Virus record (IMG/VR): IMGVR_UViG_3300037851_000445
Span: 6,729-70,728 of that record
DNA: 64,000 nucleotides
Reading direction: 5' to 3' (one strand)
Source of the DNA: a virus
Below the pieces are notes generated by a model, which was given only the letters and a program-made list of their open reading frames with translations, did no database searches and was not told the origin of the DNA. Of the stretch, positions 1,652 to 27,000 are shown in pieces; position 1 is the stretch's first letter, and every line of letters begins with the position of its first letter. The translations under genes were made by a program, and so were the position numbers.

Positions 1652-2344
1652 ATGGCGCTGACGCTTGACCAGCTGCGTGAACGGTTCCGGCGCGAGGTGA
1701 GCGACACCGAAGCGCCGTACCTCTGGTCCGACGATGATGTGCTGGACTACATCATCGACGCCCAGGACATGTTCGTTCGGCTGACGGGCGGCATCGCCGA
1801 CACGTCGACTGCGGCGGTCTGCCAGGTCACTACGGCGATCGGGCAGCCGTTCAGCGCGCACTCTCCCTACATCCTGCGGATTCGGAGCGCGCGGCACGCG
1901 GATGGGCGGGACATCTCGCTCATCAGCGAGGGCGACTTGGGGCGCATCGGGTTTCTCGACTACGGTGTCTGGAACCCGCAGAAGTTGGACGACACACAGG
2001 GCCCGGTGACGCTTGGCGTCCTCGGACTCGAGGACAACAAGATCCGGTGGATCAACGTGCCGGAGGCGGTCGAGACGATCCACCTCCACGTACTGCGGCT
2101 GCCGTACCCGCGCATTACGGACTGGGACGACACGGGCAATGCGCTGGTGATCGGTGAACAGCATCACCGGCACCTGCTCCGGTGGATGAAGCACCTCGCC
2201 TATGGGCGGGAGGACAGCGAGACGTACGACAAGACGCTGTCCGAGGAGAACGAGGCGGCGTTCCGCTCGTACTGCGCCGACGCGCGCGCAGAGATCGAGC
2301 GCGCCAAGTTCAAGCCGCGTGTGGTACGATACAGGGGGCTGTAG
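1652..2344 (+). CDS. Head-tail adaptor / tail tubular A-like protein
   Basis: MALTLDQLRERFRREVSD..PYLWSDDDVLDYI.DAQ N-terminus and HHRHLLRWMKHLAY motif resemble podophage adaptors; position after the capsid genes fits. Confidence 0.65.
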   Translation: MALTLDQLRERFRREVSDTEAPYLWSDDDVLDYIIDAQDMFVRLTGGIADTSTAAVCQVTTAIGQPFSAHSPYILRIRSARHADGRDISLISEGDLGRIGFLDYGVWNPQKLDDTQGPVTLGVLGLEDNKIRWINVPEAVETIHLHVLRLPYPRITDWDDTGNALVIGEQHHRHLLRWMKHLAYGREDSETYDKTLSEENEAAFRSYCADARAEIERAKFKPRVVRYRGL

Positions 2345-2638
2345 ATGGCGTCGTTCCCCTCACTGGTTAAGCAGCCGAGCGAGAACCGCCTCTACTCGAT
2401 GGACTTCTCCGGCCTCATGGCTTCGGGGGAGCTCATCACGGGGTGCACGATGACCCCGGCGCACGAAGTGACGACGCCACCGCTCGTGGTCGGCACCCCG
2501 GTGTATGCGGGGCAGATTGCGCAAGTGCGCATCAGCGGCGGTCTCGCGGGGACGACGTACAAGATCACGTTCCTCGTGACGACCAACGGCGGCAATACCC
2601 TCGAAGGTGAGGGCAACATGATCGTACGGGAGATCTGA
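2345..2638 (+). CDS. Small beta-sandwich fibre-adaptor-like protein
   Basis: KQPSENRLYSMDF..L..GE.I ... VRISGG.AGTTYKITF.VTTNGGNTLE pattern, typical of small virion proteins next to fibre genes. Confidence 0.55.
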   Translation: MASFPSLVKQPSENRLYSMDFSGLMASGELITGCTMTPAHEVTTPPLVVGTPVYAGQIAQVRISGGLAGTTYKITFLVTTNGGNTLEGEGNMIVREI

Positions 2639-2862
2639 TGCTTTCGTTGTTTAAGGTGGTACCGAGGCAAATCGAGTTTTCGGCCGTAGTCCTGAACGCG
2701 GACGGAACGATGAAGGAAGACCTGGGCGCGGTTTGCTACTGGCACCGCAACCCGCTCAAGAGGGCGGTCTACTGGGTGAAAGGGAAGTGCGCCGGGAAGC
2801 GTGTCCGGCTCATGTCCCGCACCGAGGCGATCGCGGTTGGGGACAAGTTGCGGAGCCACTGA
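2638..2862 (+). CDS. Hypothetical protein (74 aa)
   Basis: Stop/start overlap with the upstream gene; fills the gap in the operon. Confidence 0.5.
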   Translation: MLSLFKVVPRQIEFSAVVLNADGTMKEDLGAVCYWHRNPLKRAVYWVKGKCAGKRVRLMSRTEAIAVGDKLRSH

Positions 2863-2875
2863 CAAGGAGAACTCC

Positions 2876-3244
2876 ATGGCCACAGTAGTTACCAACGCCG
2901 GTCTGGCGATCATCACGAACCGCATCAAGGGTTCCGGCACCGAGCCGCTCTACGTCGCCTGGGGCACGGGCGCCGGCACTGCGGCCGTGGGCGACACGAC
3001 CCTCTTCACCGAGGCGTCGGAGTCGCGCGTGTCGGGCACCTCGACCCGGGTCACCACGTCGCAGACGAACGACACCTACCAGGTGGTCGGGACTCTGACC
3101 GCGGACGCGAGCAAGACCATCACCAACGCGGGGCTGTTCGACGCTTCGACGTCCGGTAACCTGTTCGTGAAGGGGGACTTCACCGGCGTCGCTCTGGCGC
3201 TCGGCGAGTCGATCCAGTTCACGATCAAGGTTCAGTTCAGCTAA
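2876..3244 (+). CDS. Virion structural protein (collar/fibre-associated, putative)
   Basis: AAGGAG SD then ATG at 2876; VVTNAGL..I...YVAWGTG....DTTLFTE...ITNAGLFDASTSGNLF pattern. Confidence 0.65.
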   Translation: MATVVTNAGLAIITNRIKGSGTEPLYVAWGTGAGTAAVGDTTLFTEASESRVSGTSTRVTTSQTNDTYQVVGTLTADASKTITNAGLFDASTSGNLFVKGDFTGVALALGESIQFTIKVQFS

Positions 3245-3303: not shown

Positions 3304-4416
3304 ATGCACACGCATAGCCAACGGCTCGAGCGCTGGCTCGGGGCCGAGAACGTCGATAGTGTGTCGCGCGCGATGCGCGACTGGTACGGCCCGCCCATCG
3401 CGCTTCACGGCGCGCCCGGGCAGGTATGGGCGGCGAAGGGCGGCGACTTCGTAGGGGCGATCGACGCCGGCTACGAGGCGTCGGCCCTCGATCGCTTCGC
3501 CGACATCCACAAGCGCGAGGTCACCCGGCGCCGCGCGCGCCTTGCAAGGGCGTGGAAGCAGCACGGGGCGATCACGTCGCTCGATGAGTGCATCGCCGCG
3601 GTCGCCGCCGGCGGTCGCCGGGACTTCAATTTCAACAAGGCCGGCTCGACGGGCGTCGCCGGGGTGACGAACAGCCTGTGGGGCGTCGGCTCCATGCCGG
3701 CCGCCGGCGCGAATGCCGCGAACGCTCCGGGCGGGGAGTCCCCCACGGACGCCACTACGGGCGCGTTCACGTTCGATAACCCGTCGAGCGGCACGCAGCA
3801 TGTCCTGATGGGCTACCCTGTCGCGAGCGTCGCGGCGAACACGCTCCTTCTGTACGACCGGCTGTTCCAGGTCAACAAGACCATGAACAGCACGGCCACC
3901 GAGGCTGTGACTGGAACGCAGTCGCGCTACGCCAGCACCACGGCCGGCGCTGCGGACTCGGCGGAGGGCAACTTCCTGTTCATCGAGGTCGGCGGCACGG
4001 CGCTCGCCGCGACCGCGCACAACTGGACCGTCTGCACCTACACTGACCAGTCGGGCAACACAGGCGCTACGCTTCCGTCTGTGACGGGGAACTCGGGCGC
4101 GATTGTGCGTCGCCTGGATCACCCCACGTCCCAGTGGTTCGCACCGCTCGCGTCTGGTGACACCGGCATCCGCTACCTCACGCAGATGCAGTGCTCGGCC
4201 GCCGTGGCGACAGGCGTCATCAACTTCGTCATCGGGCACCCGCTGGCGTGGATGCCGTGCCCCATCGCGAACCACGTGTGCGTGTACGACGGCGTCACCT
4301 CTTCGTTCAGTCTCGTGAGGGTCATGGACGACGCCGCGCTCGCGTTCCTCGAAATCTGCAAGCCGGCTACGACCGCGACGACCTACACGGGGCAGTTTTC
4401 CACGATCCGGGGGTAG
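3304..4416 (+). CDS. Virion structural/adhesin-like protein
   Basis: GAGGAG SD; 370 aa with a beta-rich C-terminal domain (SLW..G..PAAG...PT..TTGAF.F.NP...LLLYDRL). Confidence 0.6.
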   Translation: MHTHSQRLERWLGAENVDSVSRAMRDWYGPPIALHGAPGQVWAAKGGDFVGAIDAGYEASALDRFADIHKREVTRRRARLARAWKQHGAITSLDECIAAVAAGGRRDFNFNKAGSTGVAGVTNSLWGVGSMPAAGANAANAPGGESPTDATTGAFTFDNPSSGTQHVLMGYPVASVAANTLLLYDRLFQVNKTMNSTATEAVTGTQSRYASTTAGAADSAEGNFLFIEVGGTALAATAHNWTVCTYTDQSGNTGATLPSVTGNSGAIVRRLDHPTSQWFAPLASGDTGIRYLTQMQCSAAVATGVINFVIGHPLAWMPCPIANHVCVYDGVTSSFSLVRVMDDAALAFLEICKPATTATTYTGQFSTIRG

Positions 4417-4419
4417 GTC

Positions 4420-5718
4420 GTGGGCTGGATCGTTGGAAGCGGGCGTCGACAGTGGCTCGGCATCTACATCGGGTACCGGATCCCGATCAAGACGCCGTCG
4501 GGCGGCGGTACCACGTACCTCACTCTGACGTCGAACATCTGCGACACCGCGCCCACGCTGACGAAGCTGGCCGCGTACCTGCGCACTATGACCCAAGTGT
4601 CGACGGCGTCGGCGACCAGGACGCGCGAGGTCCGTTACATCCGTGCGACGCTGAGCGACTCCACGCCGGTGTTCACGCGCCTCGTCAGCTATACTCGGAC
4701 TGCGGCCGCCACCGCGACCGCTACGCGCTTGCGCCTCATCAGCTACACTCGGGCCGTGGCCAGCACCGCGGCTGCGACTATCACGAAGCTGTTTGGCTTC
4801 GCCCGTACGCTCTCAGCCGCTGCGACCTCGGTCGCGACGCGCTCGCGCCTCATCAGCTATGCCCGCGCCGCGCTCAGTGACACGACGCCTATGCGCGTCA
4901 ATCAGGTCTGGAAGAGCCTGTCTGTCGCCGCTATTGGTCAAGCGGCGCGACTCCGCACGGTGAACCTGATCCGCTCCGTGCTGTCTGACACAACGCCGGC
5001 GCTTGAGAAGGCGAAGTTCGTGCTCAGGGAACTGGTTGCCGCGGCCGTCGCCGCAGCGACGCGCAGCCGCCTGGTGCTCAGGAACTGGGCACTCAGTGCG
5101 CTTGGAACCCCAACGCGCATCCGTCTGATTTCGCGTACAATGTCGGATGCCGTCACCGGCGCCGCCACCATCGTCGGCCTCAAGGTTCTGTTCAAGGTCC
5201 TGAGCGCCGCCGCCACCACCGCCGCGACGCGCGTCCGCGCGATCTTTCTAGCTCGCGTGGCCGCGGTAACCAGCACGGCAACTCGTATCAGGGAGATTCG
5301 TATGAACTGGAACCTTGCAGTCACCGCAGCTGCGTCCCGAGTCCGCGAAATACTCAGGGCCCTGAGTGAAATCGTGACGAGTGGCGCGGCGCTCACGAAG
5401 CTCAAACTCGTGGCGAGAGAACTCATGGCGGCGGTCGCGACGACTGCGACCCGCGTGCGGAGCATCTACCGCGTAATCTCCGCAGGAGTCGCGACGAGCG
5501 CCGACCGCATGCGGGAGATCCAGCGCGTCCTGGCCCGCGTGGTGGCCGCAGCAGGGGACCTGGCGAAGTCGAGGTTTGTGACGAAACTGCTGTCCGTGGT
5601 GTCGTCCGCGGGGGCTAGCCTCGTGGCTTCCACTACCGCGGTTGTGAAGCCCGCGCTCGATACGCTCTGGAACGCGGCGAAGCGGCTCTCTATCTGGAAG
5701 GCGGGGAACCCGAAATGA
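4420..5718 (+). CDS. Arg-rich 19-aa-repeat fibre-like protein 1
   Basis: Tandem xRxLSxxxxxxATRxRxx repeats and Trp-spaced C-terminus; paralogous to 8084 and 9238 ORFs. Confidence 0.7.
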   Translation: MGWIVGSGRRQWLGIYIGYRIPIKTPSGGGTTYLTLTSNICDTAPTLTKLAAYLRTMTQVSTASATRTREVRYIRATLSDSTPVFTRLVSYTRTAAATATATRLRLISYTRAVASTAAATITKLFGFARTLSAAATSVATRSRLISYARAALSDTTPMRVNQVWKSLSVAAIGQAARLRTVNLIRSVLSDTTPALEKAKFVLRELVAAAVAAATRSRLVLRNWALSALGTPTRIRLISRTMSDAVTGAATIVGLKVLFKVLSAAATTAATRVRAIFLARVAAVTSTATRIREIRMNWNLAVTAAASRVREILRALSEIVTSGAALTKLKLVARELMAAVATTATRVRSIYRVISAGVATSADRMREIQRVLARVVAAAGDLAKSRFVTKLLSVVSSAGASLVASTTAVVKPALDTLWNAAKRLSIWKAGNPK

Positions 5719-6683
5719 CCCGCACCGTATACGTCTACAAGGACACGGACTCCAGCGCGCCGGTGCTGACCGGCACAGCGAACGACTTTGTCAACTTGCT
5801 CGACAAGTGCTTGGTGGCGGGGTACGGGTCGAAGTCCGCGGCTGGGTGGACGAAGCCGTACACTGGTACGAGCAAGGCAGCGTTCCGAAACGACACAACG
5901 GACGGGACGGGCACGTACTACCGGATTCAAGACGACCTGACCAGCACGAACCAGCGCTACGCGTACGTGACGATGTACGAGTCGATGAGCGGCATCGACT
6001 CCGGGACGAATCCGTGGAGGTCTACGAACGCAGAACTGGGTGTTCAGAAGTCGAACACCCAAGACTCCACCGCGCGGAAGTGGACGGTCGTGGCGGACAA
6101 CTGCGCTGCGCACATCATGATTCAGCACGGCGCGAACGGAACGGACTGGGAGTACGCGTTCATTGGCGACATCTTCAGCTTTGTACCGTCTGATGCGTAT
6201 CGAGGCTTCGTTATCGGGCGGTACGTTGCCTCGTCGATGGCTGGGTCGAGCTACACGTCTTACACGTCCGGGAACACCAACAGACTGGTTGGGGCGGCCG
6301 AGAATGGGCTAGGTGTAGTGCGCGCCCACACCGGCACGGGTAGCGCGATTGCGTGCGGGCTCCACACGGATGGGCACAAAGGTAACTCCAGCGGCTCGGC
6401 CAGTGCCTCGTACTTCGGCGGTAGCACGTTCGCCATGCTGGCGTACCCGAACGCAGTGAACAGCGGGCTGTTCGTGGCGCCGGTGTGGGTGCACCAGAAC
6501 ACGACGTCCCCCTACATCGTGCGCGGCTACATGCCCGGGCTGTGGGCGCCGCTGCACAACCGCGGACCGGCCAACAACGACACGTACAGCGGGTCCGGGT
6601 CGCTCTCGGGTAAGACGTTTGAGGCATTCAACATCTACTCTTCCGGGCAGATCCACATCGAAACGTCTAACACCTGGTCCTGA
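5715..6683 (+). CDS. Tail fibre/receptor-binding-type protein A
   Basis: N-terminus VYKDTDSSAPVLTGTANDFVNLLDKCLVAGYGSKSAAGWTK resembles proteobacterial phage fibre proteins; paralog of the next gene. Confidence 0.65.
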   Translation: MTRTVYVYKDTDSSAPVLTGTANDFVNLLDKCLVAGYGSKSAAGWTKPYTGTSKAAFRNDTTDGTGTYYRIQDDLTSTNQRYAYVTMYESMSGIDSGTNPWRSTNAELGVQKSNTQDSTARKWTVVADNCAAHIMIQHGANGTDWEYAFIGDIFSFVPSDAYRGFVIGRYVASSMAGSSYTSYTSGNTNRLVGAAENGLGVVRAHTGTGSAIACGLHTDGHKGNSSGSASASYFGGSTFAMLAYPNAVNSGLFVAPVWVHQNTTSPYIVRGYMPGLWAPLHNRGPANNDTYSGSGSLSGKTFEAFNIYSSGQIHIETSNTWS

Positions 6684-6686
6684 GCC

Positions 6687-7649
6687 ATGGCGATCACCAC
6701 TTACAAATCGAGCGATGCGAGCGCGCCGAGCATTGCGCGGGCGGCGGGGGATCTCATCACGCTACTCGACGCGGTGCTCGTCAACGGCTACGGTTCCAAG
6801 TCCGCGGCTGGGTGGACGAAGGAATACAGCGGTACTAACAAGGCCGTGTACAAGCAGGGCACAGGGTCCAGCGGGAAGTACCTCCGGGTCGTGGACGACG
6901 GGACGGACTACTGTGGCGGCGCGGTAGCGGACATTCAGGTGTCGGATGGGGCGTCGGGTATCGACACCGTGACCGGCGTCAGTATCGGGGCGACGACGGC
7001 GACGTACTACATCCACAAGCCCGATTCCGTAGCGAATCGCGGCTCGTGGGTCATGTACGCGGACTCCAAGGCGTTCTACCTACTCACGCAGCGCGCGCCG
7101 ACAACGGCCGTTACGGATTCGCACGTGTCGTACTCTGTCTCGTTCTTTGGGGACGCGATCTCATACGCGCCGACCACCGACGCGTACCGGTTCTTCACGC
7201 TGTCGGACCAGAGCTCTTCCCCCAGCTCGTCCGTTCCGCTGTACTCCATGTCGACGACCGCGCTCGGCGGGGTCCCGGGCGGTTTCCATGGGGACCCGAG
7301 CGGGCGGTGGGACAACGGCATCACGACGTACCTGTGCTCGGGCCATCCCGGGTTCATGGACCAGGTCGTCTACCCCAGCTACATCGCCAAAGGGCTGCTA
7401 GCGTTCCCCGTGTATCTGGTGCATTCGTCGGTGCTGCGCTCCGGCCCGGAAGTGCGCGGGAGGCTTCCTGGTGTGTTCGTGGCTCCGTTCTCTTCCACGT
7501 CGCAGTTCTACATCAAGAACGGGGACAGCTTCACGTTCTCCAGCGGCGACCTGAACGGCAAGACGCTCGAGGCTCGGTACATCCTAGGCGGCGGGGCCTA
7601 CGGCGGCCGGCTGGCGCTGTTCGAGACCTCTAACACCTGGGGGAACTGA
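6687..7649 (+). CDS. Tail fibre/receptor-binding-type protein B
   Basis: YKSSDASAPSI..AAGDLITLLDAVLVNGYGSKSAAGWTKEY; shares N- and C-terminal (ETSNTW) motifs with 5715..6683. Confidence 0.65.
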   Translation: MAITTYKSSDASAPSIARAAGDLITLLDAVLVNGYGSKSAAGWTKEYSGTNKAVYKQGTGSSGKYLRVVDDGTDYCGGAVADIQVSDGASGIDTVTGVSIGATTATYYIHKPDSVANRGSWVMYADSKAFYLLTQRAPTTAVTDSHVSYSVSFFGDAISYAPTTDAYRFFTLSDQSSSPSSSVPLYSMSTTALGGVPGGFHGDPSGRWDNGITTYLCSGHPGFMDQVVYPSYIAKGLLAFPVYLVHSSVLRSGPEVRGRLPGVFVAPFSSTSQFYIKNGDSFTFSSGDLNGKTLEARYILGGGAYGGRLALFETSNTWGN

Positions 7650-8080
7650 TGGCGGACCTGGGCACCATCGGATACAGCGTCGAGACGCAGCGCAGCACGC
7701 GGATCCCGTCGATCACGAACAACACCTCGGGAAAGGCCGGCGTGTCGCAGGCTGGTGCGAAGCAGCTGGACAGTTTGGTTGTTGGGCGGTCGCTCGTCAT
7801 TACGTCCGTGCCGGAACACGGCCACAGGTTGCAGTCCTCGGGAACTTACCTGGTGACCGGCACAGTGTATGAGTCGGGGACCCCGAAGAGCAACTGGCTC
7901 GTTCGCCTGTACCGGCGCGACAACGGCGTGTGGCTTGGCGACGCTCGGACGAACGGGACCGGGTCGTTCTTCTTCACGGTGATCGGGTATAACGGGGAGG
8001 TCACGTGCGTGGCGTACGACGACACGTCTGTAAGTCCGGACTACAATGCCCTCGTTTACGATCGTGTGATCCCGGTGTGA
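7649..8080 (+). CDS. Small fibre-associated protein with transthyretin/carboxypeptidase-regulatory-like fold
   Basis: VTGTVYESGTP...VRLYRRDNG..LG.ARTNGTGSF.F...AYDD...DYNALVYDRVIPV pattern. Confidence 0.55.
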   Translation: MADLGTIGYSVETQRSTRIPSITNNTSGKAGVSQAGAKQLDSLVVGRSLVITSVPEHGHRLQSSGTYLVTGTVYESGTPKSNWLVRLYRRDNGVWLGDARTNGTGSFFFTVIGYNGEVTCVAYDDTSVSPDYNALVYDRVIPV

Positions 8081-8083
8081 CCG

Positions 8084-9238
8084 ATGCCCTACAGCCCGCC
8101 GGCGGGGGACACCGTCAACTTCAGCTTCTCCGGTTCGGCGTACTCTCCGCCGGCCGGCAACAGCATCACGTTCGATTTTGTCGAGATCGGCGGGGCGATC
8201 AACCGCTACCTCACGGCTACATGCAATGTGGACGTGTCGTACGCGAGCATGCTGGCGAAGGTCCTGTTCGTCCAGGTGTACGGCGCGCTGTGGCCGCTGA
8301 TCCTGCGCGGCTTCTTCCGGACGATGTCCGCGTCCCGCTCGGTCGCGATGACGTGGGACCGCGTCACGATCCGGTACTTGAACCTGATCACCACGGCTGT
8401 GTCCTCGGCCGCGACGATGCGCCGGGACTTCGCTGTGTTCCTGACGCGCGTTGTGGCGGCGATGCCCTCGCGGCAGCGCGTCATCTCCCTTTCACGGAGC
8501 CTGGGCGCGAGCGTCGCCGGCACCCGGGTGAACGCCTTCCCTCGGACCCTGGTGGCTGCCGCCGCCGCCGGCGCCGCCCGCATCCGGCAGATCAGCCGCC
8601 GCCTCACCGCCGGCGCAAGCGGCGCGGCGCTCTTCCTCAAGGTGCGCCCGATGGTCATCTGGTTCACGGCGCACCCCGCGCCGGCGCTGCTCCGGCACCG
8701 GTGGATGACCCTCGCGACCGCGGTGGCCGGCGCGGCTTCGCGATCGCGGGCGGTGCAGCTTGCACGAGCCGCCAACTCGGCCCTTACAGGCACTTTTAGT
8801 CGGAAAGTCGTCAAAACCCTGTCCGCGGCCTCGCTTGTGCTGGCTATGCGCGCTCGTACGGTCGGGAAGACCCTCGCGGCGCTCGCCCGCGCAACGCCGC
8901 GCGCGCAGCGCGCCCTGCTCCGCGAGCTGACCGCCGACGTTGCGGGCGCCGCCGCGCTCGAGCGTCCGCGTCTGCTCCCCCGCCTCCTAACCGCCACAGT
9001 GAGCGCGGCCTCTTCGATTCTCCGAAACTATGGGAAGCTGCTTTTCGTCTCCGTGCCGGCCCTGCTTTCTCTCTCGCGCGTCCGAGGGGCCTTCAGGCGC
9101 GTCCTGGACCCGCGTGAGTGGCGCGCGCAGGCGGTGGTGACGGAGTGGCTGCTGGACGCCCGATCGACGCGCTGGGGGGCTGAGGCGCGGTCTGCGACGT
9201 GGACGCCGGCGCCTGACGACGTGCCGAGGGAACCGTAA
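8084..9238 (+). CDS. Arg-rich 19-aa-repeat fibre-like protein 2
   Basis: Duplicated N-terminal YSPPAG..(V/I)xFxF motif, then 19-aa repeats and a C-terminus with Trp every 9 residues. Confidence 0.7.
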   Translation: MPYSPPAGDTVNFSFSGSAYSPPAGNSITFDFVEIGGAINRYLTATCNVDVSYASMLAKVLFVQVYGALWPLILRGFFRTMSASRSVAMTWDRVTIRYLNLITTAVSSAATMRRDFAVFLTRVVAAMPSRQRVISLSRSLGASVAGTRVNAFPRTLVAAAAAGAARIRQISRRLTAGASGAALFLKVRPMVIWFTAHPAPALLRHRWMTLATAVAGAASRSRAVQLARAANSALTGTFSRKVVKTLSAASLVLAMRARTVGKTLAALARATPRAQRALLRELTADVAGAAALERPRLLPRLLTATVSAASSILRNYGKLLFVSVPALLSLSRVRGAFRRVLDPREWRAQAVVTEWLLDARSTRWGAEARSATWTPAPDDVPREP

Positions 9239-11826
9239 TGGCTCTCGGCCGCACCGGGCTGCTCGGGCAGAAGAACGCCCGGCTGGGGCGGTTCGTCCTT
9301 GCGGCGGCGCCCGCCGGCGCCGGCCCGATTCTCCAATCCCTGAACGCCGCCAGCGCGGCCACGGCGTCGAGGATTCGCCAGGTCGGGCGGGTCTGGGCCC
9401 TGGCTGTCACAGGCGCCGCGTCTAGGATCCGACAGGTGTCGATGGCGCGCGCTGCCAGCGCGGTGGCTGCGGCGGTCAGAGTTCGGCGGGTCGAGCTGTC
9501 GCGGGCCGTTATTATAGGCACAGCGGCGTTCCTTACATTCCTCCGGACCCTGTTAAAGTCTGCCTCTACTACAGCCTCCACTACGGCGTCGAGGATTCGT
9601 CAGGTAGGACGGGTATGGGCGCTGCTGACCGCCGTCTCGCCGTCGCGGGTTCGCCAAGTGAACCTGATCCGGGCAGTCTCGTCGGCGGGGGCCGCCACTT
9701 TGGCGTACACCCGGGTCCTGATGAAGTCGCTGTCGGCCGTCGCCGCCGCGACTGCGTCGAGGATCCGACACATCAGCCTTCTACGGGTCGTCGCCAGCAC
9801 CGCCTCGGCGTCGCGTAGCCGCTTGGTGTCCATGATCCGCGCCGTCGGCGCGACCGGCACGGCGACCATGTCCCGCCTGCGGACCGCCTTGCGCACCCTG
9901 TCCGCCGCGGTGACCTCAGCCGCCACCCGCGTTCGGCTGGTCGGCCGGGTCCGCGCTGCCAGCGTGACCGGCTCCGCCACGCTCTCGGCGCTTCGGGCCC
10001 TCCTGCGGACACTCTCCGCCGGCGCGGCGGCTGCGGCCACCCTGACCAAAGTGCTCGCGTTCCTGCGCACCCTGTCCGCCGCGGCGACCGCCTCCGCCAC
10101 TCGCGTTCGGCTGGTCCAGATGATCCGCGCCGTCGGCGCGACCGGCACGGCGACCATGTCCCGCCTGCGGACCGCCTTGCGCACCCTGTCCGCCGCCAGC
10201 ACCGTCTCGGCCGTTCGAGTGCGGCTGGTCCAGATGACCCGCGCCGTCGGCGCGGCGGCCAACGCCACCCTCGCCAAAGCGCGCGTGGCCCTGCGCACGT
10301 TGTCCGCCTCGGCGACCGTGGCTGCCACCCTGACAAAGGTGCTCACGGCCTTGCGCACCCTGTCCGCTGCGGTAACCGCCTCGGCCGTTCGAGTGCGGCT
10401 GGTCCAGATGGTTCGGGCGGTGTCGAGCTCCGCCGCCGCGTCCCGCAGCCGCGTGGTCAGCTTGACGCGCGCCGCCGGCGTCGCGGCGACGGCCGTGCTC
10501 GAGAAGCTCAAGGCGGTGTTCCAGACCCTCTCCGCCTCAGTGTCGACGGCGGCGACGCGTTCCCGCGTCGTGTCGATTACACGCGCCGTCGTGAACACGA
10601 CTACCGCGACGCTCGTGCGCCTGCGTGGGAAGGTCCTGAGCGCCGTTGCGGCCGCGGTGGCGTCGCGCTCTCGGGCCGTGCTGCTGGTGCGGTCGGCGGC
10701 CGCTGCCGGAGCGGCCAGCCTGACGAAGGTTCGGCTGATCGAGAAGATCCTGGCGGCGGCCGCCACAGGCGCGGTGACGCTGATTCGGATGGTGAACCTG
10801 AATAGATTCGTGACGGTCGGTTTGACCGCTTCGCGGCTTCGTCTCGTGGCGCTAACCCGCGCGGCCGCTTCGACCGCGACCGGCACTATGACGAGGCTCC
10901 GCACCGTCCTTCGGACGCTGTCGAGCGCTGTTGTCGGAGCGACCAGCATCCTGAAGACCCGGTTCCTGAGCCTGTCTCGGACGGTTTCGCTCACGGCAAC
11001 CCGCGTGCGGACCATCTACAGGAGCATGGAGTTCGAGCCCTGGGTGGCGGTGCTCCCCGTGCTCACCAAGCACCGAATTCTCGTTCGCGCGCTCTCCGCG
11101 GCTTCGAGCGCAGTGGCCACGCGCGTGCGCCAGATGAATCGAATTCTGACTGTATTCGTGACTACATTCCCGACCCTGGTGGCTTCGAAGGCGTACCTGC
11201 GGGAGCTTTATGCCTCAGCTTATGCCTCAGCGACGCGGCAGCGCCTCATTTCTCTGATGCGCAGCGCTTCGGCGACGGCTGCCGCCCAAGTCGTACGCGA
11301 AATTCGACGGATTCTGTCTCTTTCCGCATACGCGTTGGGGACGCTCTCCCGCTTCGGGCAGATCGTGCTCACCGCTTCGGTCGGGGCCGCTGCGTCGTTC
11401 AGCCGCCAAGTGGCCAAGACCCTGAGCGACGCGGTCACTGCGACTGCGACGATGTATCGCGCGCGAGCTCTGCTGCGCAGCCTCTCGGCCGGCGCGGCGG
11501 CAACCGCGAGCCTGATCCGGCGCGTGCAGCGCGAGCTCGTTTCGGCCGCACACGCGGCTGTGCTCCTGCTGAAAAATCCGGCAGCGTTTCTGACACTCCT
11601 GGCTGCTTCCGGTACGATCGCGACGCTGCTGAGGACCCGGTTCGTAGAGCTGCAAGCCACGGTTTCTGCTATACTTGTTACTCTCTCGTCGCTCGTGATC
11701 CGGTCGGTCTCGGCCGCTAAGGCCTGGGTACTCAGCCGCCGCGCGACTGAGTGGGAGCTCGGCGCGGGGAATCGCGGCACCGTTTGGAAAGCCAAGACGA
11801 GGAATAAAGGATGGCCGAGAACCTAG
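9238..11826 (+). CDS. Arg-rich 19-aa-repeat fibre-like protein 3 (862 aa)
   Basis: Dozens of LRTLSAAxTxxATRVRLVx-type units and Trp-spaced C-terminus. Confidence 0.75.
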   Translation: MALGRTGLLGQKNARLGRFVLAAAPAGAGPILQSLNAASAATASRIRQVGRVWALAVTGAASRIRQVSMARAASAVAAAVRVRRVELSRAVIIGTAAFLTFLRTLLKSASTTASTTASRIRQVGRVWALLTAVSPSRVRQVNLIRAVSSAGAATLAYTRVLMKSLSAVAAATASRIRHISLLRVVASTASASRSRLVSMIRAVGATGTATMSRLRTALRTLSAAVTSAATRVRLVGRVRAASVTGSATLSALRALLRTLSAGAAAAATLTKVLAFLRTLSAAATASATRVRLVQMIRAVGATGTATMSRLRTALRTLSAASTVSAVRVRLVQMTRAVGAAANATLAKARVALRTLSASATVAATLTKVLTALRTLSAAVTASAVRVRLVQMVRAVSSSAAASRSRVVSLTRAAGVAATAVLEKLKAVFQTLSASVSTAATRSRVVSITRAVVNTTTATLVRLRGKVLSAVAAAVASRSRAVLLVRSAAAAGAASLTKVRLIEKILAAAATGAVTLIRMVNLNRFVTVGLTASRLRLVALTRAAASTATGTMTRLRTVLRTLSSAVVGATSILKTRFLSLSRTVSLTATRVRTIYRSMEFEPWVAVLPVLTKHRILVRALSAASSAVATRVRQMNRILTVFVTTFPTLVASKAYLRELYASAYASATRQRLISLMRSASATAAAQVVREIRRILSLSAYALGTLSRFGQIVLTASVGAAASFSRQVAKTLSDAVTATATMYRARALLRSLSAGAAATASLIRRVQRELVSAAHAAVLLLKNPAAFLTLLAASGTIATLLRTRFVELQATVSAILVTLSSLVIRSVSAAKAWVLSRRATEWELGAGNRGTVWKAKTRNKGWPRT
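9832..10196 (+). repeat. 77-bp exact direct repeat (9832-9908, 10120-10196), spacing 288 bp
   Basis: ATGATCCGCGCCGTCGGCGCGACCGGCACG...CTGTCCGCCGC occurs twice, five protein repeats (19+19+19+20+19 aa) apart. Confidence 0.9.
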
Positions 11827-14800
11827 CCAACGACGTCAAGACCACGCTGAATGGAGCGATCAACAACTCCACCACCACCGTGGTCTTCACCTCGTCCACG
11901 GGCTTTCCTTCCGCAAACTTTCGCATCCGCATCGACGATGAGCTCATGCTCGTCACGAATAGCGCGAGCGCGCCGACGTACACCGTCACGCGCGGCGTTG
12001 AGGGCACGACCGCGGCCTCCCACGCGGATCTCGCCGACATCTACCACGTCCTGACAAAGACCGGGCTCGACACGTACGGCGACGAGCGCTGGGTGCAATC
12101 CGAGCCGCTGAACCAAGTCGTGTACGGCACCGGCACCGGTCTCGATTCGAACGCGAACTTCACGTACAACGCGACGACGGGAGCGCTGTCCCTAACCCCC
12201 AGCTCGTCGTCTCCGGCGGGCTCCACGATCCGCGCGGCGAGCCACAGCGGTTCGGGTAATGGCGCTTCTCTCACTCTGCAAGGTGGTACTGGAGGGGCCT
12301 CCAATTCCGGCGGCGACTTGACTATCAACGGCGGTTCGGGCGGAGGCACGACCGGCGCCGGCGGCACCGTGTACATCTATGGTGGCTCTGTCACGGACGG
12401 CAACGGCGGTGGGGTGCAAGTTTACGGGCGCAACGCGGCGGGGACGAACCGCGCAGGCGGCGCACTGTCGATGGCGGCTGGTTCCTCGACCGGCTCAGCT
12501 ACTGGCGGGCAGGTCTACATACAATCTGGTCAGGGCGGTGCGACAGGCGCCGGCGGGACGCTCCTGCTCTACGGTGGAACGGGCGGGGCCACATCCGGCG
12601 CTGGTGGGGCGGTTACTATCGCCGGCGGCTCAGCCGCCGTTGGCGCGGGTGGAAGCACCACATTGCAGGGCGGTGCGGCCGGCGGCGGGGATTATAGCGG
12701 TGGCACTACATACGTTAACGGCGGGACGTCGTCCGGGAACAACAACGGCGGCGCCGTCAACATCACAGGCGGTACCGCCCCGAGCGGTAGCGGTGCTTCC
12801 GGCGGCACGGTCACGATCGCGTCCGGGACTTCCGGAGCGACCGGCACCGGCGGCGCCGTCACTGTGCAAGGAGCCGCGGGCGGGGCCACCTCCGGTGCGG
12901 GAGGTTCGGTCACGATCCAAGGCGGTTCGGCTACGGACGGTAACGGCGGCACGGTGACCATCACTGGGCGCAACGCGGCCACCACTACTAGCGCGAGCCG
13001 CAGCGGCGGTGGGGTAACGATCACCTCTGGCGACAGCACGCAAGTTTCCGCCGGCGGAGTGATCACCATCACTGCTGGTAAGGGCGGCACGGGTGGTAAC
13101 GGCGGCGTCGGCGGGTTGATCACGATCTCTGGCGGGCGCAACGGCAGCAACACGTCGTACACGGACGGCAACGTTGTAATCCAGGGCAACTCCGACACCG
13201 ACATACCGGTTGGCACGACCACAACCGGCAACGTCGTTACGATTCGCGGTGGGAAAGGCGCGGCCACGGGTACCGGTGGGCAAGCAAGACTCCGAGGCGG
13301 CGCGGGCGGCTCGACCTCCGGCGCCGGCGGCGCTGCGTACGTTTACGGCGGCATCCCCACGGACGGTGACGGCGGCGCGGTGTACCTCTACGCGTGGGAC
13401 GGGGTCGGTACGAACCGTTCAGGTGGGGGAGCGACTGTACGCTCGGGTAACGGAGTTGGCTTGGGCTCCGGTGGCGGAATAAGCATCTCCGCGGGGGCGG
13501 GCGGGGCTACAGGTATCGGCGGGTCTGTCACTGTCACCGCGGGGGCGGGCGGGGCCACGTCCGGCGCCGGCGGGCAACTCAACTTGTATGCCGGCACCGC
13601 CACGGACGGCGCAGGCGGCGCGGTAACGATTCTCGGCAGAAACGGCACAGGAACGGACCGGGCTGGGGGCGGGGTCACGATCACGGCCGGCAACTCCACA
13701 GGCTCCGCCGCGGCCGGCGCGATCAATGTCACTGCGGGGGCGGGCGGGGCTACAGGTATCGGCGGGTCTGTCACTGTCACCGCAGGGTCGGGCGGGACCA
13801 CGTCCGGCGGCGGCGGGCAACTCAACTTGTATGCCGGCACCGCCACGGACGGCGCAGGCGGCGCGGTAACGATTCTCGGCAGAAACGGCACAGGAACGGA
13901 CCGGGCTGGGGGCGGGGTCACGATCACGGCCGGCAACTCCACAGGCTACGCCGCGGCCGGCGCGATCAATGTCACTGCGGGTACTGGCGGCGCGACGGCC
14001 GCTGGTGGGAGCATTACGCTCACCGCCGGCGCCGGTGGAAGCACCAGCGGTACGGGCGGCTCGGTGAACTTCTACGGCGGTTCCGCCACGGACGGGAACG
14101 GCGGCGCGGTGAACCTCTACGGGCGGAACGCCGTAGGCACTGCGAGAACTGGCGGCGCCGTAACGATCTTGGCCGGCAACTCCACTACTTCAAGCACGGG
14201 TGGCGCGGTCTCTGTCACTGCGGGCAATGGCGGCCCGACGGGCTCCGGGGGCACGGCGACGATCACGGGCGGCGCTGGCGGCGCCACCAGCGGCGCTGGC
14301 GGCGCCTGTACACTGCGCGCAGGAACACCGACCGCCGGGAATGGCGGATCGGCGACGGTCCAAGCCACGAGCGGGGCCGGCGGCAGCGCTGCGTCCGGTG
14401 GGTCTCTGAACCTCCAGTGGGGGGCCGGAGTTAACGGCGGAACGGACGGGGTACTGAACTTCCTCCACGGCGGAGCGGACAACTCCAGAATCCAGAAGCA
14501 CAAGTGGATGCAGGCGTCGCACGGCAACTTCTCGGTGTTCGGTGACGCGGTACGCGAGACCTACGTTCTGAGGGTCACGACTACGGACGCCACGCAGACG
14601 GAGGCGTACCTGGACGGAGCGACTGCGACTCAGCGCCTCGTTCTCCCGAACGACACAACCTGGAAATTCCGCGCCAGCGCGGCCGCGCGGCGCACGGATG
14701 TCGATGGCGAGAGCGCAGGATACGAGTACTCCGGCGTCATCGATCGCCAGACGAACGCGGCGTCCACTGCGCTCGTCGGAACAGTGCAGACTCTAATGAC

Positions 14801-14942
14801 TCCGCAGGAGGACAACGCTGCGTGGGACTTGGCGCTCGACGCCGATACCACGAACGGCTCTCTGCGGGTTCGAGTTACCGGCGAAGCGTCGAAGACGATT
14901 CGCTGGGTCATCTTCGTTGAGGTTGTGCAAGTGACGGGGTAA
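11811..14942 (+). CDS. Glycine-rich long tail fibre/adhesin (1043 aa)
   Basis: N-terminal TTLNGAI...GFP..FRIRIDDELM.VT....VTRGVEGT.AASH anchor-like domain, about 750 aa of GGxVTIxAGxGGxTxG repeats, globular C-terminal domain. Confidence 0.75.
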   Translation: MAENLANDVKTTLNGAINNSTTTVVFTSSTGFPSANFRIRIDDELMLVTNSASAPTYTVTRGVEGTTAASHADLADIYHVLTKTGLDTYGDERWVQSEPLNQVVYGTGTGLDSNANFTYNATTGALSLTPSSSSPAGSTIRAASHSGSGNGASLTLQGGTGGASNSGGDLTINGGSGGGTTGAGGTVYIYGGSVTDGNGGGVQVYGRNAAGTNRAGGALSMAAGSSTGSATGGQVYIQSGQGGATGAGGTLLLYGGTGGATSGAGGAVTIAGGSAAVGAGGSTTLQGGAAGGGDYSGGTTYVNGGTSSGNNNGGAVNITGGTAPSGSGASGGTVTIASGTSGATGTGGAVTVQGAAGGATSGAGGSVTIQGGSATDGNGGTVTITGRNAATTTSASRSGGGVTITSGDSTQVSAGGVITITAGKGGTGGNGGVGGLITISGGRNGSNTSYTDGNVVIQGNSDTDIPVGTTTTGNVVTIRGGKGAATGTGGQARLRGGAGGSTSGAGGAAYVYGGIPTDGDGGAVYLYAWDGVGTNRSGGGATVRSGNGVGLGSGGGISISAGAGGATGIGGSVTVTAGAGGATSGAGGQLNLYAGTATDGAGGAVTILGRNGTGTDRAGGGVTITAGNSTGSAAAGAINVTAGAGGATGIGGSVTVTAGSGGTTSGGGGQLNLYAGTATDGAGGAVTILGRNGTGTDRAGGGVTITAGNSTGYAAAGAINVTAGTGGATAAGGSITLTAGAGGSTSGTGGSVNFYGGSATDGNGGAVNLYGRNAVGTARTGGAVTILAGNSTTSSTGGAVSVTAGNGGPTGSGGTATITGGAGGATSGAGGACTLRAGTPTAGNGGSATVQATSGAGGSAASGGSLNLQWGAGVNGGTDGVLNFLHGGADNSRIQKHKWMQASHGNFSVFGDAVRETYVLRVTTTDATQTEAYLDGATATQRLVLPNDTTWKFRASAAARRTDVDGESAGYEYSGVIDRQTNAASTALVGTVQTLMTPQEDNAAWDLALDADTTNGSLRVRVTGEASKTIRWVIFVEVVQVTG
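13491..13980 (+). repeat. Tandem 243-bp (81-aa) near-identical duplication inside the Gly-rich fibre
   Basis: 13491-13733 and 13734-13976 differ at only a handful of positions (e.g. GGCTCC vs GGCTAC). Confidence 0.9.
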
Positions 14943-14946
14943 CGCC

Positions 14947-15216
14947 ATGGACCAGACTAAACTCAATACGATCATCCAGGACATCATCGAAGACAAGCTC
15001 GGTCCTGTCGAAACCATGCAAGCGGAACGCGAGTTCGTGCGGCTCCTGATGCAAGAGCGGGCGGAACGAAAGCAGCTCTGGCAGAAGGTGAAGCAGAACG
15101 TGGTCGGTCATACGATGATCATTCTGTTGTCGGGGTTGGGATACCTCGGGTGGCAGATCGCGAAGTTCCTGTTCAATCACGCGCCGGAATTCATCAGGGA
15201 GTGGGGTTCCAAGTGA
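14947..15216 (+). CDS. Small single-TM protein (holin/antiholin-like, uncertain)
   Basis: Coiled N-terminus plus one hydrophobic helix (VVGHTMIILLSGLGYLGWQIA), at the start of the lysis region. Confidence 0.45.
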   Translation: MDQTKLNTIIQDIIEDKLGPVETMQAEREFVRLLMQERAERKQLWQKVKQNVVGHTMIILLSGLGYLGWQIAKFLFNHAPEFIREWGSK

Positions 15217-15689
15217 CCACTATTGCAGCGAACCTGGAGTACATGGCCGCCGACACGAAGGTGACCATGGGGTCGAACGACATCTACCACACGCGCAAGA
15301 AGATCCAGCGGATCAAGGTGAAGGGCAAGACCATGATCGCCGGCGCCGCCGGGCTCGACTTCTACATCCAGCAGTTCTTCCTGTTCCTCAAGCAGGGCGG
15401 CGAGCCGAAGATGCAGCGCAGGGACATCGACGAACACACCGAAGATCTGAACTTCGAGGGGCTGGTTCTGTGTAGCGAGGGCATCCTTCTGTACGACGAC
15501 ACGCTCACAGCCGCGAAGATCGAGGAACCGTTCTACGCCATTGGCAGCGGCGGGCAGGCCGCCCGCGCGGCCATGACGATGGGAGCGGACCCGAAGCAGG
15601 CCATCAAGATCGCGTCGAAAATCGACAGCGCGACCGGGCTGCCGATCGTCACCCTCAAGCTCTCGAAGGACAAGACCAATGCCAGGTAA
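15213..15689 (+). CDS. Ntn-hydrolase (HslV/proteasome-beta-like peptidase)
   Basis: GTG start gives M-TTIAA (N-terminal Thr nucleophile); AADTK, KI..I, and FYAIGSGG..ARAAM..GA motifs. Confidence 0.75.
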   Translation: MTTIAANLEYMAADTKVTMGSNDIYHTRKKIQRIKVKGKTMIAGAAGLDFYIQQFFLFLKQGGEPKMQRRDIDEHTEDLNFEGLVLCSEGILLYDDTLTAAKIEEPFYAIGSGGQAARAAMTMGADPKQAIKIASKIDSATGLPIVTLKLSKDKTNAR

Positions 15690-24002: not shown

Positions 24003-27000
24003 ATGCCGCGTCTTGACGATGCCCCCATCGTTATTGGGGGTGCACTGGCGGATGCCTACGCCGCCCCGACCGAGCTAGAGGTCGCGCAGGAACAAGCCCT
24101 CCAAGATAAAGCCACCTCCGGGCCGCTCATGCACGGGCTCCGCTCTGGGTGGCTCGGCGTGCGGGGCGGCCTCACCTCTCTCGCGGGCACCGCCGCCGAG
24201 AACATGGGGCTGACGGACTTCGCCAACGCGCGCTTCCGCGAGGCGGACCTCTTCGCTCAGCAGGCGGAGGCCGCGGCGCCAGAGGTGCGGGACTACCGCG
24301 CCGTCAAGGATCTCCGTTCCGCGGCGGTCTACGCCCTGGGGCAGCTCGGGAACGCGGCCGCGACGATGGGGCCGACGGTCCTCACCGCGCTCGGGACGCG
24401 CGGGAGGATGGTGCCTACGTTCGGGGTAGCCGGAGGGATGATGGCCGGCGAGCAGGACGTGAACATCCGCCGGGAGAGCCCGCAAGTGGGCGCCGCGGAC
24501 CGCCTGGGCTCGGACGTAGCACAGGGTGTCGTTGGCGGCGCGCTGGAAGCCGCCGTGCCCCTCGCGCTCGCCCGCCGGGCGTCAGCCGGGCTCGGCGCTG
24601 GGCGGATCGGGACCTCGATGGCGCAGGAGGCCGCCACGGAGGCGGCACAGACCGTCTCGGGGCAACAGCTGCACGGGGCGGTAGACCCGGCACGGGATAC
24701 CTCGGACGACCGGGCTGAGATCATCAACGCCGCGATCGGCGGCGCGATCGGTGGCGGAGGTGCGCATCTGGTCAGCAGTCTGCCGGCTGCGGCGCAAGAC
24801 GTCGCTCCGCGAGTCCGCGACACCTTCGACGGCACACTCGAAGGCGCGAAGAAGCTCCTGGACAGGACACCTAGCATCGAAGACCTCAAAGGGATCACCC
24901 TGCCGGACGAGGTCAAGGACATCGACGCGGCCGTCAAGTTCGTCTCAGAGACGGAGAAGACCGCCCGCGAGGCCGCGGCGAAGGCCGCGAACTGGGTGGC
25001 GGAGCAGCCGCGGGCGCCGGAAGGCCTCAAGAAGGCCATGAGCGCGGTAGCCGATAGGCTCCAGGACCCGCTCCTGGACCCGGACACGCTGACCGAGCTT
25101 ACCGAGAAGACGAAGGCAGCCGTTGACAAGATCAAGGTCGATGAGAAGGTCCGGAGAGTCTCGAAGCGAGTGCGGCAGTACATCGAGGACGCCAAGACCA
25201 GCGTCGACGAGATCATGGCCGGGCGAGAGGCTGGTCGGCAAGCCGAGCGGTCCGCCGGGGACTACAACTTCGAGGAGCTCTCGAAGGCCCCGCCGAAGAA
25301 AAGCAAGTTCGACATGCGCCCGCTCTGGTCGCCCTCCCCGCTCGGTAGCGTCGGCCCTGCCCCGTCGAAAGGGGTTGTCGGCGCGCCCAGCGACATCCGC
25401 ATGGGTCCGAAGCCGCCGTCATACAAGACGGCCGCCGCAAGGATCATCGGACCGCGCCTGGACTACACGCCGACGAACGCGCCGCGCACGATTCCGGAAG
25501 ACGAGTACACGCCGGCAACGCAAGAGCAGCTGCAGGCACTTGCGCGGAAGTACTCCAAGGACCCGAGCCCGGCTCCGCTCGAAGCCCCAGGCCGCGAGCC
25601 GGACCTCGAGGTCCTGGACATCATGACGTCGCACCTGGACCCGCAGTTCGTAGCCCAGGCCGACGCGGAGGCTCTGCTCGACCTTGCCGAAACCCACCAG
25701 GAGTACGTCAAGCACATCGTCCAGAAGACGGTCGAGCGGCGCGCCCAGGCGATCAAGACCGGCTCGATCCAGAACGACCCGGACGTTGCTCCGCTGCCGT
25801 TCCGCCCGGACGCCGAGCTGGTCGAGCTCTACGGCTCGCCGAAGAAAGCGAAAGCCGCGCTGACGGCTGTTGCGAAGCACATGTTCAAGCGCGGGGACTG
25901 GGCGGACGTCGGCGCGATCCCGGAGGATCTGGATGAGGTACCGCGGTTCGACCGGAGCCTACGGCAGCAGGCAACATACGGCAGGGCCGTTGAACTGGCT
26001 GTGGCGAGGCATCTGTACCCGCAGTTCCTCAAGACCCGCGACGTCCGCGCGCACGTCGCCAATCAGGTCGGCGAGCGAGTGACGGACTGGCTGCGCGATC
26101 CGCAAGCTGGAGCGGCGCAGGAGCTCGTTACGGACATCAAGAGGTTCGTGAAGGACCCCGAGGGCCTGCTGGACGAGCTCTTCGCTCTCACCGAGCAGCG
26201 CCGGTCGTTTGTCAGCGGTGCGCAGCTGCTCGACGACAACACCGGAGACCTCGTGGACCTCGAGTCCGGCGCCCCGCGCGACGAAACGCGCGGCGCGGAC
26301 CTGGCCCCGACGGAGCAGATCGGCCGGGTTGGCGACGTCGCCGGCGGGCCGAGCGGGGACCGCACCGGGTTCGGTATGCCGCAGCGCCGGGAGCCGACCG
26401 ACGTCGAGCTCCGTCTCTTCAAACAGATCAAGTCTGGCATCGCAAACTGGTTCCAAGACGTTCCGACCGAGGGCGCCAAGGAAGGGATCATCAAGACCAT
26501 GCCCCTCGGTTTGTACCGAGACATCCAAGAACTGCTGGAACAGGATGGGCTCGATGAGCTGAACCCCGATCACGTTCAGTTCATCGAAGAAACTCCGGCG
26601 AAACTGGAGACGCTGTACAACATCGAGCTCAGCAGCGCCGACAAGATCAAGCAGGCTCGCGAGCGCGCGGACGGGATCCTCGACGTGCTGCAAGGGCGCG
26701 GCACGGAGTGGTATGCGCTGTCGATCACGAAGCGGTACAACAGCGGCCAGTTTACCGTCAATCTGAACGTAGGCACGAAGCGCGTGGACACACAGCGGCT
26801 GTTCAACGCGATGAACCGGCGCTACAAAGGCGAGTACGACGCGAACGAGCGTACCGGCCAGACAGCGCGGAAGTACGTGTCGGACATGTTTGCCCGCGGA
26901 ATCTCCCACCTCGTCGCCGACGAGCGAGTCCGCCAAAACGCCCCGCTGCACGCGAACGCCTTCAACTTCGACGACGACGAAGTCCTGGTGACCCACAACG

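Follow-up and report, generated by a model that had tools for sequence, protein, structure and literature searches.

The DNA analysed here, a window of 64,000 nucleotides (bases 6729-70728) from a 71,790-base viral record of IMG/VR (IMGVR_UViG_3300037851_000445) that was rated complete by CheckV, carries three genes encoding long, strongly basic repeat proteins, which we call R1, R2 and R3. Taking their sequences together with those of the neighbouring genes, we consider it probable that these proteins are the "ropes" of beads-on-a-string tail fibres, each with its own gene, and that all three share one "bead" protein and one "collar" protein. In fibres of this chain-like kind, dimers of a small protein with the gp80 fold are strung on an extended rope, as described from cryo-electron microscopy (cryo-EM) in the accessible text of three reports (PMC13730344, PMC12609058, PMC11445570). 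The genes and motifs concerned are the following (aa, amino acids; Trp or W, tryptophan; Ig, immunoglobulin):

2345..2638, plus strand: Ig-like collar, a fiber-tail adaptor of the Gp77 family (PF23148, 3.3e-16)
2876..3244, plus strand: bead, a small fibre protein of the Gp80 family (PF23140, 4.9e-07), with an alternative GTG start at 2801
4420..5718, plus strand: putative rope R1 of 432 aa with about 18 units of 18/20 aa and a net charge of +47, paralogous to R3
5668..5697, plus strand: W-x8-W motif at the C-terminus of R1 (W417, W426)
8084..9238, plus strand: putative rope R2 of 384 aa with about 11 units, a net charge of +34 and a duplicated SPPAG..F.F motif at the N-terminus
9119..9202, plus strand: Trp motif at the C-terminus of R2 (W346, W355, W364, W373; spacing 9, 9, 9)
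9238..11826, plus strand: putative rope R3 of 862 aa with about 40 units and a net charge of +113, whose start overlaps the stop of R2
11725..11814, plus strand: Trp motif at the C-terminus of R3 (W830, W839, W850, W859; spacing 9, 11, 9)

From these parts we infer how the fibres would be threaded and in which stoichiometry, and what the Trp motif and the charge would do. Each 18/20-residue unit would be the docking site for one dimer of the Gp80-family bead, and the C-terminal end of the rope, which carries the W-x8-W motif, would lock into the ring formed by the Gp77-family collar around the head-tail adaptor. A single gene for the bead and a single gene for the collar would suffice for all three ropes, which, with their roughly 11, 18 and 40 units, would yield fibres of three different lengths; the number of units would act as a fibre-length ruler. 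The regularly spaced Arg residues of the rope, two or three per unit, could pair with conserved acidic residues of the bead, and the surplus charge of the rope may help to bind anionic cell-surface polymers.

The repeat itself is real. Ala, Thr, Ser, Val, Leu and Arg make up 71% of R1, 66% of R2 and 80% of R3, and Asp plus Glu account for 16 of 432, 17 of 384 and 12 of 862 residues, respectively. The periodicity test compared lag scores, calculated in a reduced alphabet, with 200 shuffles, and it gave z values of 11.1 (lag 18), 10.2 (lag 20) and 15.1 (lag 38) for R3, 7.9 (lag 18) and 5.8 (lag 20) for R1, and 4.9 (lag 18) and 3.0 (lag 20) for R2. The repeat unit is 18 or 20 residues long and forms super-repeats of 38 and 56; a half-unit of 9-10 residues was rejected, as lag 9 is strongly negative. 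A hidden Markov model (HMM) of the unit matched 32 units in R3, 13 in R1 and 7 in R2, and the unit numbers given in the list above are those estimated by span. The three proteins are paralogous within the phage's own genome (E=1.4e-18 for R3 versus R1 and E=1.6e-12 for R3 versus R2). An initial annotation of this DNA had already recognised the paralogy, the biased composition and the scarcity of acidic residues, and it proposed a unit of 19-20 residues, of which the repetition is confirmed but the length of 19 is not. It was also correct in giving the three proteins different N-termini. Residues 1-34 of R2 (8084-8185) contain a duplicated motif, SPPAGDTVNFSF followed by SPPAGNSITFDF, which R1 and R3 lack and which may be a separate docking element.

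At the C-terminus, the W-x8-W motif is present in each of the three proteins. The initial annotation had noticed this Trp motif and its spacing of mostly 9. Seven adjacent W-W pairs over R1-R3 have a spacing of exactly 9, and this number was matched in none of 20,000 joint shuffles; the Trp series of R2 taken by itself was equalled in 3 of 20,000. Among the relatives of the repeat proteins described below, 23 of 151 have at least two W among their last 60 residues; of the 46 W-W spacings in this stretch, 21 are of 9 or 10. Some relatives have C-terminal tails rich in Arg and Trp, and the last rope of the related locus L051 ends in a W-x8-W-x8-W tail. A docking tail with an aromatic residue every 9-10 positions was considered as a family-wide feature and rejected, since 9 such cases were observed against a shuffle mean of 10.3 in 34 non-redundant relatives. 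The N-terminus of R1 would also contain a W-x8-W motif (W3, W12; 4426-4455) if the GTG start at 4420 is real; an ATG is found at 4588.

Both partners proposed for the ropes are encoded in the window. The collar gene product scores 60 bits against PF23148 (cut-off 27), above the Pfam curated cut-off, and shares 29% identity with gp77 of the Ralstonia podophage GP4 (BLASTP, 3e-09), which bears out the initial description of the gene at 2345 as adaptor-like. The bead is likewise above the curated cut-off, with 30.6 bits against PF23140 (cut-off 27), is 31% identical to GP4 gp80 over the full length, matches phrog_5417, and has a weak sequence match with chain a of PDB 8JOU (E 0.03-0.04). The Pfam families Gp77 and Gp80, named "fiber-tail adaptor" and "fiber I protein", are derived from the cryo-EM structure of GP4. 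By genome-wide search, the 71.8-kb genome has a single copy of the collar gene, and the bead gene is also present in one copy. Five acidic residues of the bead are nearly invariant (D40, E46, D66, D89 and D101). The Gp80-family gene at 2876-3244 had been overlooked in the initial annotation, and its presence shifts the interpretation of the repeats towards ropes threaded through bead dimers.

The genes for bead, rope and collar are linked. Relatives of the bead are encoded in 329 IMG/VR loci, and the linkage was counted in the best 80 of them, at 64-84% identity to the bead; loci were fetched with single proteins as queries, the family alignments being too divergent for pattern scans. A relative of R1-R3 lies downstream of the bead gene and on the same strand in 60 of these 80 loci, and the rope open reading frame (ORF) starts 0-75 nucleotides (nt) 3' of the bead gene in 34 of 61 cases. 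A Gp77-like ORF was found in 45 of the 80 loci and together with a rope in 42, in 37 of which the collar ORF starts no more than 80 nt from the end of the rope. When redundancy was removed, 38 ropes remained, 34 of them with at least 400 nt of downstream sequence, and the collar was adjacent to the rope in 19 of the 22 loci that contained one. The conserved cassette is therefore bead, rope and collar, which correspond to the three components of Fiber I in GP4. In L035, a distant SU10-like podophage, a small phrog_5417 protein is likewise encoded directly 5' of a repeat protein (P0010). The closest syntenic relative of the window, L051, has the order adaptor, collar, small ORF, bead, rope(s), Gly-rich fibre; all of these parts recur in the window, where the ropes number three and four additional genes are interleaved. 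In L051 the rope region (9382-11132) consists of two overlapping open frames in different reading frames, which might be two rope genes or a frameshift. The bead, with its 64-84% identity, is far more conserved than the ropes (about 25-35%), and this fits one bead serving many different sites.

The repeat proteins belong to a broad family. An exhaustive profile-free search yielded 152 representative relatives at E<=0.001, 26 of these at E<=1e-10; searches for related loci with R3 and with the relative P0040 as queries gave no relatives. In nearly all relatives the repeat lies C-terminal to a globular N-terminal part. The Pfam scan covered first 40 and then a further 63 of the 152 relatives, and it detected a LamG lectin domain in 11 of the first 40 and in 6 of the next 63, besides CBM_4_9, GDPD and DUF7483 domains. 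As examples of end modules, P0054 has a GDPD phosphodiesterase, P0057 a LamG and a C-terminal BppU_N domain, P0086 a CBM_4_9 domain, and P0040 a DUF4082 and a C-terminal Gp77 domain. This variety suggests that heads and anchors have been exchanged freely around the repeat. Two of these proteins are informative on orientation: P0040 is composed of a globular N-terminal domain, repeats and a Gp77 domain (8.8e-24), i.e., it is a natural fusion of rope and collar, and in P0057 the BppU_N domain is C-terminal to the repeats. These fusions fix the polarity, with the anchor at the C-terminal end, and docking of R1-R3 through their C-terminal ends, as initially proposed from the Trp motif, would fit them.

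No family was assigned to R1, R2 or R3 in PHROGs (E<=0.001) or in Pfam (E<=0.01), and the relatives P0157, P0158 and P0021 have none in Pfam or PHROG either, apart from one sub-threshold match. A search of the ESM Atlas with R3 returned unnamed viral clusters only. The family profile found a single, biased low-complexity match in the PDB, and our full-text searches of the accessible literature retrieved no published description of a repeat rope family. The initial statement that no characterised family has this repeat thus stands at the level of sequence, with no match in Pfam, PHROG or PDB, but not for the architecture, which has solved precedents.

Several observations weigh against the assignment of R1-R3 as bead-carrying ropes. 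No rope was found in 20 of the 80 bead loci, although 10 of these 20 have less than 2.1 kb of downstream sequence, and the gene order of the window itself is rearranged, with other genes between the ropes and the collar upstream. The Trp motif is limited to a subset of the relatives. The net charge of the bead is only -1 to -4, and the charges of bead and rope correlate weakly (Spearman -0.36, p=0.005, relatedness uncorrected). R1 and R3 have no sequence match to any solved chain in the PDB, and the unit HMM built from R1-R3 does not match GP4 gp78 or gp79. Moreover, solved ropes need not be repeats: in the phage KPP25 (AB910393), where we took ORF005-007 as the counterpart of gp39-gp41 of the Pseudomonas podophage A1002, ORF005 (620 aa) is followed by genes of 147, 171 and 398 aa, lengths that match A1002 gp40-42, and its rope region is Pro-rich, acidic (net -11) and devoid of internal periodicity. 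The last two points concern the conformation. Residues 290-430 of R1 are helical at a predicted local distance difference test score (pLDDT) of 70-87 in an AlphaFold2 model with alignment and low overall confidence, and hydrophobicity spectra peak at 3.4-3.6 residues in P0158, P0157, P0021 and R1, a period more in keeping with an amphipathic helix than with the beta-strand rope of the solved fibres. The peak reaches 165 in P0158 against a 95th-percentile shuffle maximum of 79, and 94 against 72 in R1; it is not significant in R2 or R3.

The most serious competing explanation, which we regard as rather unlikely, is that the repeats are self-standing shafts running from an N-terminal or separately encoded head to the collar, either as a coiled coil with five turns per 18-residue unit or as a beta-solenoid with one coil per unit, and the Gp80-like protein belongs to a separate fibre or whisker that shares the collar. 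Eighteen residues are indeed five turns of an undistorted alpha-helix. AlphaFold2 with a 113-sequence alignment built R1 as long helices, with its best confidence in the C-terminal third, and many relatives have an N-terminal LamG or CBM lectin domain, as ordinary fibres do. A beta-solenoid or triple-beta shaft was also the form that the initial annotation had proposed. The models are, however, of low confidence and disagree among themselves: the five R1 models have pLDDT of 61, 47, 45, 42 and 39, the predicted template modelling score of R1 is 0.33, and the single-sequence model of R2 is uninformative (pLDDT 39.6). The ESM Atlas model of R1 (pLDDT 0.55) has beta-solenoid neighbours of the DUF4097 and DUF2807 families, but these are weak, with template modelling scores of 0.3-0.4 only. 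These models give the solenoid or triple-beta shaft originally proposed no clear support. The composition also speaks against a simple helix, because Ser plus Thr reach about 30-40% in the AT-rich relatives and in P0021 (about 29-42% of the repeat regions of P0157, P0158 and P0021), where the Chou-Fasman beta propensity exceeds the alpha propensity. Residue classes alternate with a period of 2, and both R3 and P0021 score negatively at lags 7, 9 and 11. For a solenoid, the approximately one turn-former (G, N, D or P) per unit of R3 is awkward. The sequence periodicities conflict on conformation, with helical periods of 3.4-3.6 residues on one side and period-2 alternation on the other. A self-standing shaft also leaves unexplained the position of the gene between bead and collar, which are its neighbours in the non-redundant loci counted above (19 of 22 with a collar). 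It is on this context of bead, rope and collar genes that we chose the rope as the more probable explanation.

A second possibility is that R1-R3 are polycationic binders with no scaffold role, acting as a "glue" for lipopolysaccharide (LPS), capsule or extracellular polymeric substances or binding nucleic acids inside the virion, so that the periodicity would be incidental. The extreme charge of R3, the near absence of acidic residues and the Arg/Trp-rich tails of some relatives are in line with this idea, and a contact between GP4 Fiber I and LPS has been speculated upon in the Bas63 paper, in the part of it that is accessible (PMC12609058). Positive charge does run through the family, but what is conserved is the length of the unit together with the gene order relative to bead and collar, and the fusions with collar domains and lectin heads place the protein outside the tail, as a connector. 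A binding role would in any case be compatible with bead-carrying ropes and would not replace them, and we consider polycationic binding as the sole function improbable.

R1, R2 and R3 are real genes. Their third-codon-position GC (guanine plus cytosine) content in the frames listed above is 0.80-0.87, similar to that of the neighbouring genes. Ropes from genomes of 35-69% GC keep 18 as their best lag and have mostly +1 to +3 net charges per 19 residues, and in the AT-rich relatives (35-40% GC) the 18-residue period is kept while K, S, T, I and Y replace R and A; the pattern is thus under selection as protein sequence. It is hardly credible that the three are mere open frames arising from high GC and a DNA repeat, or that the true genes are antisense: long antisense ORFs with high third-position GC do cover R2 and R3, the AT skew of this block is negative, in contrast to that of the plus-strand genes on either side, and the window's own R3 is missing from the results of a homologous-protein search, but most of the 152 representative relatives have globular domains fused in frame, the relatives of low GC keep the period with a different palette of amino acids, the genes of the operon have tightly coupled starts and stops, the ESM Atlas contains R1 letter for letter, and the negative skew probably reflects an amino-acid composition with many codons having T and few having A at the second position. 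The antisense ORFs at 9600-11015 (minus strand, 471 aa) and 8206-8997 (minus strand, 263 aa) use the high-GC third positions of R3 and R2, respectively. They are shadow ORFs with equally odd translations, and a gene caller may choose the wrong strand at these two places.

The plus strand of the window from position 1 to about 31,500 encodes virion and lysis functions, identified by Pfam and PHROG matches, including a capsid protein, an SU10-type adaptor, an endolysin and a 2169-aa virion protein. The other genes around the putative ropes are:

1652..2344, plus strand: head-tail adaptor (Pfam SU10_adaptor, 1.6e-08; phrog_399)
2638..2862, plus strand: small 74-aa ORF between collar and bead, with relatives just 5' of the bead gene in 6 of the 80 bead loci
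3304..4416, plus strand: conserved globular protein of 370 aa, a mobile module found in 27 IMG/VR loci
5715..6683, plus strand: phrog_9600 protein ("tail assembly protein"), first paralog (2.8e-52)
6687..7649, plus strand: phrog_9600 protein, second paralog (1e-40)
7649..8080, plus strand: 143-aa protein directly 5' of R2 (phrog_27013 and phrog_21337, both of unknown function)
11811..14942, plus strand: Gly-rich tail fibre of a different kind, 1043 aa, whose N-terminus matches phrog_11439, "tail fiber protein" (3.1e-05)

The 74-aa ORF has no family match in Pfam or PHROG and no match by sequence in the PDB. The 370-aa protein is possibly an exchangeable head: its 27 relatives, at 46-68% identity, occur in unrelated contexts in genomes of widely differing GC content, and two or three tandem paralogs are common (L018, L032, L016, L020 and L029, among loci L007-L033). 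It was rejected as a member of the conserved cassette, as none of these 27 loci contains a repeat protein. The phrog_9600 family matches 58 phage records at about 35% identity, mostly of phages of Xanthomonas, Stenotrophomonas and Xylella, and both tandem paralogs of the window end in ETSNTW. A relative of the 1043-aa fibre comes after the rope in L051 and L084; the similarity of this fibre to GP4 gp76 is not significant, and it was rejected as a homologue. Between the fibre module and the endolysin gene lies a gene for an HslV-family peptidase-like protein (15150-15689; phrog_1040, 2.8e-28). The 2169-aa virion protein (24003-30512) matches phrog_30152 (2.8e-115) and, weakly at its N-terminus, the virion RNA polymerase family phrog_2206 (2.7e-08). 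DNA and protein searches of a cultured-phage collection with the region, with R3 and with the collar gave no match, and the adaptor used as query retrieved three distant records.

The results support the view of the initial annotation that this is a tail-fibre module with three length variants of one repeat scaffold, but they do not bear out its suggestion that the three variants carry different heads. A bolder version of our proposal, which we put forward tentatively, would be that this one phage, with a single gene for the bead and one collar ring, assembles bead-chain fibres in three tiers, with the three rope paralogs as rulers and the bead as the most abundant protein of the virion. If this were true, the bead would be present in hundreds of copies and would outnumber the coat subunits of a T=9 capsid (535), and the 18/20-residue cationic unit would define a large undescribed family of ropes, with at least 152 clusters at 50% identity. 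Fibre length would evolve by gain and loss of units, and at either end lectin heads or anchor domains would be replaced by others. If the rope interpretation in general holds, fibre length could be predicted from the unit count, a simple case of length control by a repeat ruler, several ropes could use one bead and one collar, and there may be a modular route to the exchange of receptor-binding heads. A signature made of the 18/20-residue unit flanked by Gp80 and Gp77 genes would find ropes in hundreds of uncultured phages.

By function and gene context, the R1-R3 system groups with Fiber I of GP4, the collar-whisker complex of Bas63 and the chain-like fibre of A1002. The GP4 structure, reported by Zheng et al. 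(J Mol Biol 2023; PDB 8JOU), is said to have given the first sight of the beaded fibre design, in 2023. The closest likeness is to GP4, a podophage which also has an SU10-type adaptor, whose gp80 and gp77 are homologous to the bead and collar of the window, and in which the rope is a separate gene beside those of bead and collar. According to the accessible text of PMC13730344 and PMC12609058, Fiber I consists of five dimers of gp80 strung on a rope that has its own gene and interlocks with the Ig-like collar. GP4 thus has five dimers per fibre, whereas about 11, 18 and 40 units are found here on three paralogous ropes. The gene order also differs, being bead, gp79, gp78 and collar in GP4 and collar, small ORF, bead and ropes interleaved with other genes in the window. 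GP4 gp79 (L006, 10048-11025, minus strand, 325 aa), which adjoins gp80 and has a periodicity of 10, 20, 30 and 40 residues (z about 5), is a candidate for the GP4 rope, but it is acidic (net -7) in contrast to the strongly basic R1-R3. Neither gp78 nor gp79 has a PDB match by sequence.

In the Escherichia myophage Bas63, and also in Sf14, dimers wrap an extended rope and an Ig-like collar forms a ring on the connector, as far as the available text describes them (PMC12609058). There, the N-terminal extension of the Bas63 collar is the rope and holds two whisker dimers "like beads on a string", passing through grooves where it completes the incomplete sandwiches of the whiskers (PMC12609058). 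Rope and collar thus follow each other within one polypeptide, with the same polarity as in P0040; the Bas63 rope is a short extension with two dimers, whereas the ropes of the window are separate, long and repetitive. The bead profile did not detect the whisker and collar chains of Bas63 in the PDB at E<=1.

In A1002, the nozzle-rope protein gp39 carries 11 dimers, formed by gp40/gp41, on about 268 fibre-dock residues, i.e., about 24 per dimer, a figure close to the 18-20 residues of the unit described here; the fold of these dimers is gp80-like and their binding is by beta-sheet augmentation, according to the accessible part of that report (PMC13730344). The succession of distal globular domain, rope and C-terminal anchor is the same as in most relatives of R1-R3. 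The A1002 rope differs in being fused to nozzle domains, and A1002 has two bead genes where the window has one. As far as these sources go, the solved beads-on-a-rope fibres are a handful of cryo-EM structures (2023-2026) with 2 to 11 dimers, whose ropes were identified from density and not from sequence. Compared with them, the system described here has as new features a regular cationic unit of 18/20 residues, three rope paralogs in one phage with one bead and one collar, and predicted unit counts that reach about 40 as against the 2-11 dimers of the solved fibres.

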